Shown one piece after another: positions 3,539-11,135 of a stretch of DNA of 11,181 nucleotides. Both the position numbers and the translations under genes were made by a program. Position 1 is the first letter of the stretch. Each line of letters begins with the position of its first letter. The notes under the pieces are model-generated. The model saw only the letters and a program-made list of their open reading frames with translations. It was not told the origin of the DNA and searched no databases. Origin of the DNA: a virus; the IMG/VR virus record IMGVR_UViG_3300045988_085326, positions 128,001-139,181 of that record; one strand, 5' to 3'.

Positions 3539-3659
3539 AAGAAGGTAGCTCAGATGGGAGAGCGCCTGGATAAAGAAAATGGATTAGATATAATCCGAAA
3601 CTGCAACTCTTTTTTCTAAAGGGACCAGGATGTCGTGGGTTCGAGCCCCACCCTTCTTA
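3539..3659 (+). tRNA. tRNA gene interrupted by a ~48-nt insertion in the anticodon arm (121 nt total; isotype unresolved)
   Basis: Perfect acceptor aagaagg/ccttctt. D-arm tagctcagatgggagagc. T-arm gtggg-ttcgagc-cccac. The anticodon stem halves cctgg (3565-3569) and ccagg (3625-3629) are separated by 55 nt containing the hairpin ggatta-GATA-taatcc. Confidence 0.55.
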
Positions 3660-3662
3660 TTT

Positions 3663-3787
3663 GGCGAGATAGCGGAATGGAAAGACGCACCGGAACCCAA
3701 TCGGGTTTAGGAATAAACCATCGCGGCACTACGGACTTAAAATCCGGCGACTTCAGTGTCATGTAGGTTCGAGTCCTACTCTCGCCA
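3663..3787 (+). tRNA. tRNA-Leu(TAA), type II, interrupted by a 41-nt insertion between the 5' anticodon-stem strand and the loop (125 nt total)
   Basis: Acceptor ggcgaga/tctcgcc, discriminator A. D-arm gcg-gaatggaaaga-cgc. ccgga (3690-3694), then 41 nt (with hairpin ggttta-GGAA-taaacc), then loop cTTAAaa and tccgg. Long variable arm. T-arm gtagg-ttcgagt-cctac. Confidence 0.6.
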
Positions 3788-3879
3788 CTATAAAAATTAA
3801 AGGAGAAATATTATGCGCTGGTTAGGCGGACGAAGAAAATTTGATATATGGTAAATTAACTTTTAAGGAGGAAATTATT

Positions 3880-5861: not shown

Positions 5862-5891
5862 ATTTATACAAAACAAAAGGAAGTGGTAGAA

Positions 5892-6212
5892 ATGAATAAA
5901 GTAAAATATTTTATTTGGGTAGATGATGAAAGAGTTTTACCTCATTATATTGATGGGATAGCAGAAAATTTCATAGTTTGTAAAACTTATAAGCAAGCTA
6001 TTAATGCTCTTGATACTTATTGTGCTATTGGCAATGTATATCTTGATTTAGACCATGATTTAGGTTGCAGACAGAACGGATATGATATTGCAAAATATAT
6101 AGTAGAGAATCAGATGCCTTTATATGGTTTTTCTTGTCATTCATTTAATCCTGTTGGTAGAAAGAATATTGAAGATTTACTCCAGCATTATGGATATAAG
6201 AAAGGAATATAA
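5892..6212 (+). CDS. hypothetical protein (106 aa)
   Basis: RBS aaaaggaag ~8 nt before ATG 5892 (the track's GTG 5883 overlaps the RBS). The YFIWVDDERVLP...VYLDLDHDLG stretch loosely recalls a receiver-like fold; not assignable. Confidence 0.6.
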   Translation: MNKVKYFIWVDDERVLPHYIDGIAENFIVCKTYKQAINALDTYCAIGNVYLDLDHDLGCRQNGYDIAKYIVENQMPLYGFSCHSFNPVGRKNIEDLLQHYGYKKGI

Positions 6213-8725: not shown

Positions 8726-8845
8726 CTTGACCGACAAGGTCATTATAGGTTGTACAATCTACTCACTGAACTGACATACTTCATGGGATGCTGATAAAGT
8801 GTATGTCCGAAGATACATGACCTTCGTTAAAAAGGTGTCCCGCGA

Positions 8846-8874
8846 CTCTCGACGGAAGTTCGCAATATCGAGAG
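8846..8874 (+). other. hairpin ctctcga-(15 nt)-tcgagag, 6 nt upstream of tRNA-Leu
   Basis: 7-bp perfect inverted repeat directly 5' of the tRNA at 8881. Confidence 0.4.
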
Positions 8875-8880
8875 AATTAT

Positions 8881-8963
8881 GGGGATATGGCGGAATTGGC
8901 AGACGCATGGGACTTAAAATCCCAAGTCCTCGAGACGTGTGGGTTCGAATCCCACTATCCCTA
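8881..8963 (+). tRNA. tRNA-Leu(TAA), type II, uninterrupted
   Basis: Acceptor ggggata/tatccct (G1·U72). D-arm gcg-gaattggcaga-cgc. Anticodon arm tggga-cTTAAaa-tccca. Long variable arm. T-arm gtggg-ttcgaat-cccac. Discriminator A. Confidence 0.85.
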
Positions 8964-9191
8964 CTTGCTATACATTTAGTTCGCGATAAATGTTAGCAAC
9001 TATGCTCATGAGTTAGTCCTCCAGTAGTTTGAGGGGTGCGTACTAAAACAAATGGAAACCGCGCAGTAAGGCATATACAGCAAATATTCAATAAAGATAA
9101 TCTATTAACCAAGAAGAAAATAGAACAACAAATAGTAAATAACTTTCCCTCCAGTTATAACTATTTCATTGAATGAGTGCCTTGTAAATTT

Positions 9192-9264
9192 AGTCAAGTG
9201 ATGGAATGGCATACATACGAAGCTCAAACCTTCGGTTTTGTGAGTTCGACTCCCACCTTGACTA
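9192..9264 (+). tRNA. class-I (short variable arm) tRNA with Leu anticodon CAA and Leu-type D-arm; 73 nt
   Basis: Acceptor agtcaag/cttgact (perfect). D-arm atg-gaatggcata-cat. Anticodon arm cgaag-cTCAAac-cttcg. Variable loop gtttt (5 nt). T-arm gtgag-ttcgact-cccac. Discriminator A. Confidence 0.7.
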
Positions 9265-9494
9265 CTAAAACCTTCGTTAAAAATACTCAATTATAGACGA
9301 ACTTGTGAATAGTAAGGTAGGACCCCTGTTAGGTTAAGTCTCTGAAAGTAACATTAAGTAGTCTTACGGTAGTCCAAAGTGGGAGAGGTAAGTTCAGCGT
9401 AATGAGTATACGAGACTTACATAGTTACCGCCGCGGCAGTTGGTTTCTGCGAAGGTCACCAACAAAAAGTATTTCTAATGTATTCATACAATTT

Positions 9495-9510
9495 GTCCTC
9501 TTATGAGGAC
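9495..9510 (+). other. hairpin gtcctc-TTAT-gaggac, 3 nt upstream of the tRNA at 9514
   Basis: 6-bp perfect stem with tetraloop. Confidence 0.5.
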
Positions 9511-9513
9511 TAT

Positions 9514-9586
9514 GGGCGGGTGACGGAATGGCATACGTGCTGGTCTTAGAAACCAGATTTTGTGGGTTCGACTCCCACCTCGCCTA
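9514..9586 (+). tRNA. class-I (short variable arm) tRNA with Leu anticodon TAG and Leu-type D-arm; 73 nt
   Basis: Acceptor gggcggg/ctcgcct (two G·U). D-arm acg-gaatggcata-cgt. Anticodon arm ctggt-cTTAGaa-accag. Variable atttt. T-arm gtggg-ttcgact-cccac. Discriminator A. Confidence 0.7.
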
Positions 9587-9753
9587 CTCTGTTAGGGTTT
9601 GGAATCCCTTTAACTCAACCGAGGCAGAACTAGAAGAAACCTTGCAAGGATATATAAATTATTTTATTAAACTTATTTTATGAAATGGGTCGCCGTATTA
9701 ATATTATAGCATATAAAATTTAGAAGACAACGGCGACAAAAAGATTAATTATT

Positions 9754-9829
9754 CGCAGTATAGCTCAATCAGGTAGAGCGCTCCCATTGTGGAGGGAGAG
9801 GCTATGAGGTTCAAATCCCATTGCTGCAA
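9754..9829 (+). tRNA. degenerate tRNA-like gene (good D-arm and T-loop, no clean anticodon arm or T-stem); possible pseudo-tRNA
   Basis: tagctcaatcaggtagagc D-arm and ggttcaaatcc T-loop. Acceptor cgcagta/tgctgca carries a C1·A72 mismatch. The middle (ctccc-attgtgga-gggag) gives an 8-nt loop, and the T-stem tgagg/cccat does not pair. Confidence 0.35.
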
Positions 9830-9964
9830 TTTGACGAACGGTAGGCTGCGGGTCCTGAGTCTTAGACCAAGACCTCGTCCTAGGAAGCGGCGTTCCTACT
9901 AGTCATTATCATAAAAGATATTCCTTTCAAAGTATTTTCCATGCGGAGATTATCTTCGCAATTT

Positions 9965-10036
9965 GGCTCGGTAGCTCAGCGGTAGAACACCTGGTTGAAG
10001 CCCAGGGTGTCGGAGTCTCGGAATCTCCCCGAGCCA
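9965..10036 (+). tRNA. tRNA-Phe(GAA)-like with atypical T-arm
   Basis: Acceptor ggctcgg/ccgagcc perfect. Anticodon arm cctgg-tTGAAgc-ccagg. Variable gtgtc as in bacterial tRNA-Phe. T-region ggagt-ctcggaa-tctcc lacks the TTC motif. D-stem has one mismatch. Confidence 0.55.
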
Positions 10037-10253
10037 TTATAGAACGGACAATCAAAAGAATGAAATCTATTGTTCGTCTAAGAAAGAAGACCAACATCTG
10101 GACAAAAGTGAAAACAAAACCAGTGCGGCAGGCTCTGAATCTCACAAGGAGCCTTATATGGGCGTCAAGTATTCGAGATGGGAAACGCTTCGTATCAAAT
10201 ATGATACATAATGAAGAGAGCAAGGTTCAACGCCTTGGGTGTCCACTAATATG

Positions 10254-10343
10254 GAGTCGTAAGCCTAATTTGGTAAGGCAGGAGATTGCTAATCTCTGAG
10301 TAGTCGTTTCGGCGGTGTGGTGGTTCGAGTCCACTCGGCTTCG
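10254..10343 (+). tRNA. tRNA-Ser(GCT)-like, type II, with a poorly pairing acceptor stem; possibly degenerate
   Basis: D-arm gcct-aatttggta-aggc. Anticodon arm ggaga-tTGCTaa-tctct. 21-nt variable arm. T-arm ggtgg-ttcgagt-ccact. The 3' strand cggcttc pairs with cg(t)aagcc only if a bulge is allowed. Confidence 0.45.
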
Positions 10344-10619
10344 CTAAGATACATTAACAGCAATCTTATATTATTGAGTAAATACTATAATACTGCAAGT
10401 TTACAAGCTGGTTTCTGTGAAATATCTTTTCCGAAGTCATCAAAAAGAAAATATGTATCTTGTTTAAACCTGTTTCTTTTAGCACACTATCTTCACAGGT
10501 GTAGTTAGTAAGAAGGCTAATACCCAGGGTTAATGGTTAAAATTCTACCCATAATGACAGTAAAAACGAACGACATGGTATAAGTCCAAAATGTTAGGTG
10601 GTATTCTGTCTTTAAATTT

Positions 10620-10704
10620 GGCGTCGTACCTTAGTGGGGAGGAGGTCTGGTCTTGAAAACCAGAGTCCCGAAAGGGTCTGCAGGTTCGAATCCTGCCGGC
10701 GTCG
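10620..10704 (+). tRNA. tRNA-Ser(TGA), type II
   Basis: Acceptor ggcgtcg/cggcgtc (two G·U). Anticodon arm ctggt-cTTGAaa-accag. Variable arm with ccc-GAAA-ggg hairpin. T-arm gcagg-ttcgaat-cctgc. Discriminator G. Confidence 0.8.
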
Positions 10705-10721
10705 TTTTAAAAGGAGGTAAT

Positions 10722-11135
10722 ATGGCACTTCACAATAGAAGATATTATCGTATCCAAAGACAAAAGCACATCAATCGAAAGAAAAGAATTATTAAAGAAC
10801 AAAATAATTATTGGCACTATGAACATGAAGGTGTTCTTAATAAAGGAAAAATTCATTGCGGTTGTGGAATGTGTAGAAGCAAAACTAATAATAAAGGTAA
10901 ACACCGTTTAATACATGGAAATTATGCTCCTTCAAAAAATTGGAAACATTCTGATAAACAAAAGATAGAAAGTATGAACACGGCAATCGCTGATTATGAG
11001 CGCGAGATAACTGAAATTGAAGCGCTTGGAGCCTACTTTCCGCGACAGTTCAATGCTTTTGAATATTATGATGATGCGAATTGGGCATATGAAAATGAAC
11101 TTCTTGAAAAAATGATTGCAGATTTACCTGATTAA
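10722..11135 (+). CDS. hypothetical basic protein, 137 aa (Arg/Lys/Tyr/Trp-rich N-terminus, HCGCGMC motif, acidic C-terminus)
   Basis: Perfect RBS aaggagg 5 nt before ATG 10722. The track's ATG 10653 lies inside tRNA-Ser. Composition resembles CDS 3880..4473 and the split ORF at 4501. Confidence 0.65.
   Translation: MALHNRRYYRIQRQKHINRKKRIIKEQNNYWHYEHEGVLNKGKIHCGCGMCRSKTNNKGKHRLIHGNYAPSKNWKHSDKQKIESMNTAIADYEREITEIEALGAYFPRQFNAFEYYDDANWAYENELLEKMIADLPD

Follow-up and report, generated by a model that had tools for sequence, protein, structure and literature searches.

Canonical type-II leucine tRNAs carry a variable stem-loop of 12-20 nucleotides (nt), and a bacterial tRNA-Leu known to do without it is the type-I (class-I) tRNA-Leu(CAA) of Streptomyces coelicolor. 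This tRNA is leucylated by the single leucyl-tRNA synthetase (LeuRS) of the species, ScoLeuRS, with a kcat/Km of about 44% of that for the type-II form (Fan et al. 2019, NAR 47:6369, PMC6614811), and requires a variable loop of at least 5 nt (PMC6614811). Animal mitochondrial tRNA-Leu(UUR/CUN) is also class-I; the LeuRS that charges it is of bacterial type, and A73 and A14 are its determinants (PMC9976931). ScoLeuRS does not charge human mitochondrial tRNA-Leu (PMC6614811). Escherichia coli LeuRS needs A73, A15-U48, G18G19, A20a and contacts that join its tRNA's D loop to the T loop, while the long arm is dispensable and arm-less variants are active (PMC9976931); the tertiary-core identity set for this enzyme comprises U8:A14, A15:U48, G18G19 with U55C56, and U54:A58 (PMC9976931, PMC6614811). 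Here we describe two class-I leucine tRNA genes of 73 nt on the + strand, tRNA-Leu(CAA) at 9192-9264 and tRNA-Leu(UAG) at 9514-9586, in an 11,181-nt stretch of viral DNA (IMG/VR record IMGVR_UViG_3300045988_085326, positions 128,001 to 139,181), the whole of which we call the window.

An original prediction made from the letters of the window had described two 73-nt tRNAs with 5-nt variable loops, the anticodons CAA and UAG and the discriminator A73, a description borne out by ARAGORN, by Infernal with the Rfam tRNA model (RF00005) and by direct reading. ARAGORN called tRNA-Leu(caa) at 9192-9265 and tRNA-Leu(tag) at 9514-9587, and Infernal aligned both genes end to end over all 71 model positions, with 48.2 bits (E 1e-8) for 9192-9264 and 59.4 bits (E 9e-12) for 9514-9586, both exceeding the gathering score of 29 bits. 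A whole-window Rfam run with gathering filters omitted the tRNA at 9192-9264, which scored well above the threshold when its region was searched alone. Neither ARAGORN nor Infernal recovered a fold with a variable arm longer than 10 nt for either gene; both gave 5 nt.

The acceptor stem of the CAA tRNA (AGUCAAG/CUUGACU) is followed by U8 and G9, a D-arm AUG-G-AAUGGCAU-A-CAU, an anticodon arm CGAAG-CUCAAAC-CUUCG with the anticodon at 9225-9227, a variable loop GUUUU at 9235-9239 and a T arm GUGAG-UUCGACU-CCCAC, the stem of which contains an A52.C62 mismatch that accounts for the lower Rfam score of this tRNA. Its UAG counterpart has the acceptor stem GGGCGGG/CUCGCCU with the wobbles G1.U72 and G6.U67, the D-arm ACG-G-AAUGGCAU-A-CGU, the anticodon arm CUGGU-CUUAGAA-ACCAG with the anticodon at 9547-9549 and A37 (window 9550) in place of the usual G37, the variable loop AUUUU at 9557-9561 and the T arm GUGGG-UUCGACU-CCCAC. 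With these irregularities, and with a G13.A22 opposition in both D stems, the cloverleaves are not perfect, as they had been called. Common to both genes are this Leu-typical G13.A22, U8, A14, A15, the D-loop GG, U48, the T loop UUCGACU and the discriminator A73 (A at 9264 and 9586), and the tertiary-core identity set of E. coli LeuRS is present in full. An A lies two bases 3' of G19 in the D loop AAUGGCAU, its numbering as A20a being ambiguous in a loop 1 base shorter than that of E. coli. The 3:70 pair is U:A in the CAA tRNA and G:C in the UAG tRNA, neither being G3:U70, and neither gene encodes CCA. Minimum-free-energy (MFE) folding of the single sequences did not return the cloverleaf and gave weak z-scores (-1.0 to -1.8); weak 3-bp D stems being normal for tRNA-Leu, we set this aside as a test of the fold and used the covariance model and family covariation in its place.

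Copies of the locus on related contigs showed how these structures vary over short distances. A protein of the window was found on a 17.7-kb human-gut metagenome contig, and the tRNA region was about 99% identical to two others, one (L195) binned with an Erysipelotrichaceae metagenome-assembled genome (MAG) and one a 102-kb IMG/VR viral contig (L031, IMGVR_UViG_3300045988_106526). A megablast search with 8800-10800 against 50,697 phage records found no match, relatives coming only from metagenome, MAG and IMG/VR contigs. We infer that the source is a large phage of the gut that infects a member of the Bacillota, a host assigned from binning. Across the three copies of the short tRNAs, A10-U25 and G49-C65 of the UAG tRNA changed to G.U with pairing kept, and the A at window 9243 that creates A52.C62 in the CAA tRNA is replaced in both sister contigs by G52-C62 in a perfect stem; this A may have arisen by recent mutation or in the assembly.

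We then searched for further tRNAs of this kind with the pattern GGAATN{0,1}GGCATACN{26,28}GGGTTCGA, which fixes the D-loop and T-loop strings at class-I spacing and leaves the anticodon, variable loop, acceptor stem and discriminator free. IMG/VR yielded at least 119 loci, and among the matches listed all 122 matching tRNAs had leucine anticodons, with all six represented (tag 50, caa 38, taa 17, gag 6, cag 6 and aag 5). In 185,579 cellular genomes, one per prokaryotic species, there were 93 loci, bringing the two sets together to 202 leucine anticodons in 204 tRNAs among the matches listed. The short-Leu body is tied to leucine codons and nothing else, in cellular genomes in 80 of 82 tRNAs.

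Family statistics were computed on the 208 unique class-I Leu tRNAs from the matches listed in the IMG/VR and cellular loci. Stem positions were paired in 94-100% of members, except the D-stem pair 11-24 (85%) and the unpaired G13.A22 (present in 180/208), and most acceptor and anticodon-stem positions were filled by 4-6 standard pair types. U48 (208/208) and A73 (207/208), neither of which is set by the pattern, were retained together with A15:U48 (207/208). U8, A15, U48, the UUCGA T-loop motif and A73 count as invariant family-wide, and the variable loop follows RUUYU. G3:U70 occurred in no member, and the reverse-oriented U3.G70 in one. A looser scan using the D-arm alone in one IMG/VR sample gave 85 unique Leu tRNAs among the matches listed, 12 class-I and 73 type-II; the class-I ones lie in loci rich in tRNAs, with a median of 10.5 per locus versus 3 for type-II matches. 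A37 replaced G37 in 90 of 128 class-I Leu tRNAs with NAG anticodons (70%) and in 19 of 42 of type II (45%) in these loci. G37 is the m1G37 site typical of bacterial Leu tRNAs that read CUN. Separately, IMG/VR loci L222-L337 contained seven tRNAs longer than 79 nt that combine a Leu-type D-arm with non-Leu anticodons, including the suppressor-like CTA and TTA, which may be Leu-bodied suppressors or ARAGORN mis-parses.

The isotype of the short body was evaluated by a nearest-neighbour test in which the D-arm region, T arm and discriminator were compared, with the anticodon arm and variable region hidden, against 1,551-1,595 unique tRNAs that these loci supplied across all isotypes, short Leu tRNAs being left out. 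Type-II Leu tRNAs, less than 5% of this reference, made up 27 of the 30 top neighbours of the window CAA tRNA and 20 of 30 for the UAG tRNA. Family-wide the top neighbour was a type-II Leu tRNA for 200 of 238 class-I Leu tRNAs (84%) and a Lys tRNA for 13, by a method with a cross-validated accuracy of 60%. Class-I and type-II Leu tRNAs have in common the D-arm string UG-RYG-G-AAU(U)GGCA(U/G)A-CRY, including G13.A22. A15:U48 was also considered as a mark exclusive to Leu and rejected, since many Arg, Lys and Trp tRNAs from these loci have it too. In the window itself, the D-arm (GCG-G-AAUUGGCAG-A-CGC) and T arm of a canonical type-II tRNA-Leu(UAA) at 8881-8963 (+ strand, 14-nt variable arm; ARAGORN and Rfam) match those of both short tRNAs. 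Two type-II D-arms had been quoted for comparison in the original prediction; both are of Leu type, although the second, at 3672-3688, turned out to sit in a tRNA-Leu(UAA) interrupted by a 41-nt insertion. Because of the D-arm, G13.A22, A14, A15:U48, A73 and the nearest-neighbour test, the earlier proposal of tRNA-Leu genes with the variable arm missing is supported, and the short bodies appear to be Leu-type minus that arm.

Short and long Leu tRNAs divide the anticodons between them. Among the matches listed, 60 loci carried both architectures, and only 2 had the same anticodon in both forms, in contrast to 20.2 +/- 2.7 loci expected from shuffling (2 or fewer in 0 of 5000 shuffles), a split that would look like the pattern of a single isoacceptor set. 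The window obeys it, with UAA in type II and CAA and UAG in class I; the tRNA at 8881-8963 and the two short tRNAs cover all Leu codons with no anticodon in common. Leucine codons in the local open reading frames (ORFs) number 58 TTA, 26 CTT, 16 TTG, 4 CTG, 3 CTC and 2 CTA, and the UAG tRNA probably serves the whole CUN box. The other type-II families retained the long arm in the same loci (Ser 143/146, Tyr 68/69). This arm is used by the bacterial Ser and Tyr synthetases.

Compared with the known systems, the window tRNAs are most like their canonical type-II relatives (for example 8881-8963 and the tRNA-Leu1(UAG) of phage T5) outside the variable region, sharing the D-arm, the 3-bp stem with G13.A22, A14, A15:U48, the T arm, A73 and Leu anticodons, and differ from them in having 5 nt in place of the long stem-loop. 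With the S. coelicolor type-I tRNA they share a Leu anticodon, the 5-nt variable loop, A73 and U8:A14, which is important there, as well as coexistence with type-II Leu isoacceptors (in the window those at 8881-8963 and 3663-3788). The S. coelicolor tRNA nevertheless has the variable loop ACAGC with C48, whereas the phage family has RUUYU with U48, and it is a single chromosomal isoacceptor, whereas the window genes are phage-borne and their family spans six anticodons; A73 is moreover not an identity element for ScoLeuRS (PMC6614811), while the window family retains the E. coli-type A15:U48. Mitochondrial tRNA-Leu is class-I too, but has a degenerate core, a dedicated LeuRS and no sequence kinship with the phage family. 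According to the summary in PMC9976931 of work on engineered arm-less E. coli tRNA-Leu (Asahara 1998; Larkin 2002), the arm is dispensable, and what those variants kept, A73 and the tertiary contacts of the D and T loops, coincides exactly with what is conserved in the short tRNAs; as summarised there, those are laboratory constructs, some also without an anticodon arm, whereas the window tRNAs are natural genes.

Short tRNA-Leu genes proved to be present in sequenced phages as well. A blastn search with the 73-mers found near-full-length matches annotated as tRNA-Leu in Vibrio phage JSF10 and several Aeromonas phages, and, in Mesorhizobium, Mycobacterium (Wildcat) and Microbacterium (Zooman) phages, half-length matches that cross the variable region ungapped. 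These relatives are 73-78-nt tRNAs with UAG, CAA, CAG or GAG anticodons, on which the records and ARAGORN agree, and GenBank already labels such genes tRNA-Leu (Vibrio JSF10; Aeromonas 4_4572, TS3 and Akh-2; Mesorhizobium Cp1R7A-A1; Mycobacterium Wildcat; Microbacterium Zooman). The Vibrio and Aeromonas tRNAs have 80-87% core identity to those of the window and agree with them in D-arm, variable loop and T arm; the phages belong to other lineages and hosts, and most encode CCA, unlike the window genes. The search gave 401 matches in total, with 55 records covering at least 80% of the query, and most of the 401 probably match type-II Leu tRNAs, or tRNAs of other kinds, only in part. Neither the GenBank records nor the literature found remark on the short form as unusual, and we found no description of phage type-I tRNA-Leu in the literature searched, the limited coverage of which leaves one possible. 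The tRNA-Leu1(UAG) of T5 is an ordinary type-II tRNA of 85 nt, which rules out the short form as general to T5-like phages. When a class-I Leu tRNA from a gammaproteobacterial phage was compared by blastn with 5,426 complete E. coli genomes, nothing matched at E <= 1e-3, an absence that is uninformative on E. coli LeuRS. As a separate observation, Pseudomonas phage KPP10 and about 30 relatives carry an annotated tRNA-Gln(UUG) (L008, 300-376) with 75% full-length identity to the window Leu(UAG), a D-arm resembling that of Leu and U48 in the variable loop, but with G73, U35 and A1-U72; it may represent an isotype switch from a short-Leu body.

The short form also occurs in cellular genomes. On the chromosome of Tumebacillus avium, a member of the Bacillota, class-I Leu(CAA) lies in rRNA-linked core tRNA operons (locus L149, 3185-3261), surrounded by 16S, 23S and 5S genes and the Bacillaceae-1 RNA, and Tumebacillus lipolyticus and Effusibacillus have it in tRNA clusters of a similar kind, where one Effusibacillus and one T. 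lipolyticus locus also contain a 5S gene. A conserved lone class-I Leu(CAG) is present in about 11 Clostridia genomes or MAGs (loci within L131-L215). Short tRNA-Leu is thus cellular as well as phage-borne, beyond Streptomyces. The statement in the original prediction that bacterial tRNA-Leu is universally type II does not hold, given S. coelicolor (PMC6614811), Tumebacillus, Effusibacillus and the phage annotations.

Anatomy, family membership, conservation and covariation, the restriction to Leu anticodons and the complementarity with type-II Leu tRNAs argue that both window genes are functional, phage-encoded class-I leucine tRNAs, charged by the host LeuRS and decoding leucine codons, which we hold to be likely, with charging and use in translation predicted from sequence comparison. 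A type-II tRNA-Leu would have lost its variable arm and kept A73, U8:A14, A15:U48, the 3-bp D stem that includes G13.A22 and the T-loop pairing of G18G19. The host LeuRS, an enzyme that would ignore the anticodon and that in E. coli does not need the long arm, would then charge both tRNAs with leucine, and they would decode UUG (CAA) and CUN (UAG) as leucine beside the phage type-II Leu(UAA). Of the outcomes that the original prediction had envisaged, continued leucylation is thus the one favoured by the comparative evidence, and recoding and loss of function are disfavoured by family conservation, the restriction to six Leu anticodons and the anticodon complementarity with type-II Leu.

Several points weigh against this interpretation. 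The LeuRS partner is putative, and the placing of the host in Erysipelotrichaceae is a guess from a MAG bin. PMC9976931 bears out the earlier remark that the variable arm goes unread by E. coli LeuRS, yet this enzyme fails to charge the S. coelicolor type-I tRNA-Leu(CAA) (PMC6614811), and for that reason acceptance of every short tRNA-Leu by any given host LeuRS cannot be assumed. The combination of A14, A15, U48 and A73 is found in 84-89% of Leu tRNAs, yet also in up to 48% of Lys tRNAs. The scan pattern was derived from the window tRNAs, which builds D-loop and T-loop conservation partly into the family, and the family sequences are related, so that covariation speaks for maintained structure and is not a count of independent events. 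Finally, the CAA copy of the window has an A52.C62 mismatch that its sisters do not have.

This mismatch, the MFE folds without a cloverleaf and the odd tRNA-like genes in the same array would fit non-functional relics or uncharged decoys, that is, degenerate genes with a deleted arm or tRNA-like sponges. Such an origin is very improbable when 208 unique relatives keep their stems by compensatory changes along with the invariant U8, A15, U48, UUCGA and A73, when Infernal scores far exceed the Rfam threshold and when the variation between sister phages preserves pairs; the anticodons also complement those of the type-II Leu tRNAs, copies reside in bacterial core rRNA-tRNA operons, and weak MFE z-scores are normal for single tRNAs. 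Recoding, in which the tRNAs would be charged with a non-leucine amino acid and UUG and CUN would be reassigned or blurred in phage proteins, draws on the mismatch between anticodon and architecture, and tRNAs elsewhere with disagreeing body and anticodon offer a precedent. The body, however, is Leu-type and not that of another isotype, a restriction to six Leu anticodons would be pointless for recoding, AlaRS would find no G3:U70 and SerRS no long arm, and the discriminator is A73, not the G73 of Ser. Most other synthetases read anticodon bases that the short tRNAs lack, and short and long Leu tRNAs partition anticodons within arrays like one isoacceptor set, leaving recoding the least credible of the explanations considered. 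We also regard it as improbable that the short tRNAs began as ordinary class-I tRNAs for, say, Lys or Gln and gained Leu anticodons with no arm deletion. The 13 of 238 members with a Lys nearest neighbour and the 75% identity of the tRNA-Gln(UUG) of KPP10-like Pseudomonas phages to the window UAG tRNA point in this direction, but type-II Leu is the nearest neighbour of 84%, the D-arm string with G13.A22 is common to type-II Leu, and the Gln and Lys look-alikes are more simply derived from a Leu body, as with the G73 and U35 of the KPP10 tRNA.

A further proposal concerns why the arm was lost and is compatible with leucine decoding: the loss would be adaptive, letting the phage tRNAs escape host or rival-phage effectors that recognise the type-II variable arm while LeuRS identity is kept. 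In its favour, class-I Leu tRNAs sit in tRNA-rich arrays (median 10.5 versus 3), phage tRNAs evade tRNA-targeting defences by sequence changes (PMC10264068), and tRNA arrays have been proposed as anti-defence (PMC12803027). For the bacterial toxin MenT3 the long variable loop is a determinant in tRNA-Ser, but this toxin barely touches tRNA-Leu (PMC11162799). Human cells are reported to cleave type-II tRNAs in an SLFN11-dependent way, in work cited in PMC13056530, where bacterial Schlafen homologues are reported to cleave tRNA in phage defence; that paper gives no type-II specificity in bacteria, and we rejected bacterial Schlafen nucleases as type-II-specific tRNases. The replacement of canonical G37 by A37 in 70% of class-I NAG-anticodon Leu tRNAs would also fit an escape. 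On the other side, no known bacterial effector targets tRNA-Leu through its long arm, the same phage arrays still hold type-II Leu(UAA), Ser and Tyr, and the architecture is not phage-specific, being found in the rRNA-linked Tumebacillus core, the Effusibacillus clusters, the lone Clostridia gene and Streptomyces; such cellular copies argue that it is simply viable. We judge counter-defence possible though unlikely. Its stricter form, in which arm loss, often with A37 replacing the m1G37-capable G37, is a structural counter-defence open to Leu because only LeuRS among the type-II synthetases tolerates the loss, is somewhat more doubtful still; if true, the architecture would be a second tRNA-based route of immune evasion besides the known anticodon-loop mutations.

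The short-armed tRNA-Leu is a common, conserved type in phages and some bacteria, a known oddity and no tampering with the genetic code, and the window genes are ordinary members of a widespread family, with no evidence of codon reassignment. Annotation pipelines that call such short genes tRNA-Leu are very probably right. In the literature searched this form was described only as something rare, from Streptomyces and mitochondria, whereas phage tRNA arrays commonly contain it. This family-wide picture, with more than 200 sequences and six anticodons from phages and cells, is the most useful by-product of the analysis. It provides a natural series for asking what bacterial LeuRS needs, and bears on why Leu alone among type-II families can lose the arm and on whether that loss relates to tRNA-targeting defence.

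The window around the two genes is low in GC (about 30-42%). Default ARAGORN finds 15 tRNA genes in it, which all lie on the + strand with small ORFs between them; the ORFs include a SleB-type cell-wall hydrolase. Midway through the tRNA array, ORF 5883-6212 (+) codes for a cyclic-phosphate processing receiver domain, cREC_REC (Pfam PF20274, E 2e-19), which hints at a link to RNA repair. The type-II Leu(UAA) at 8881-8963 is broken in the L031 contig, where unrelated sequence replaces its 5' half and the break falls at the anticodon (…CUUA|AAAUCCC…). A group I intron was considered as the cause and set aside, there being no Rfam intron match, and the break may be an insertion or recombination endpoint.

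The second type-II tRNA-Leu(UAA), at 3663-3788 on the + strand, was identified by ARAGORN -i and its fold, default ARAGORN and Rfam having missed it. Its D-arm is GCG-G-AAUGGAAAG-A-CGC, and its 41-nt insertion in the anticodon arm lies on the 5' side of the anticodon loop between CGGA repeats, which makes the boundaries ambiguous. It adjoins another insertion-bearing tRNA-like gene at 3539-3659 (+), which has a perfect acceptor stem, D arm and T arm (Rfam tRNA, 49.3 bits) and a 48-54-nt insertion in the anticodon loop with two small hairpins and a TAAAG direct repeat at its flanks. ARAGORN -i reads this gene as tRNA-Phe(AAA) with a 48-nt intron, an insert far below group I intron size. Run on 119 loci, the intron mode made 173 calls, many of them apparently mis-parsed long arms, and we used it as a hint only; it suggests recurrent short 'introns' in other IMG/VR arrays, for example in Phe(gaa) (89-92 nt) and Phe(aaa) (41 nt), which are unverified calls.

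Close to the short UAG gene, the tRNA at 9753-9830 (+) has an 8-nt anticodon loop AUUGUGGA (ARAGORN 'tgtg') and a C1xA72 mismatch. The bottom of its anticodon stem consists of three C-G pairs. In place of AUUGUGGA the L031 counterpart reads AUUAUGGA. ARAGORN also called tRNAs with 8-nt loops in Aeromonas phage TS3 (tcgg) and at locus L192 (taaa), and the latter bears the class-I Leu D-arm and T-arm pattern.

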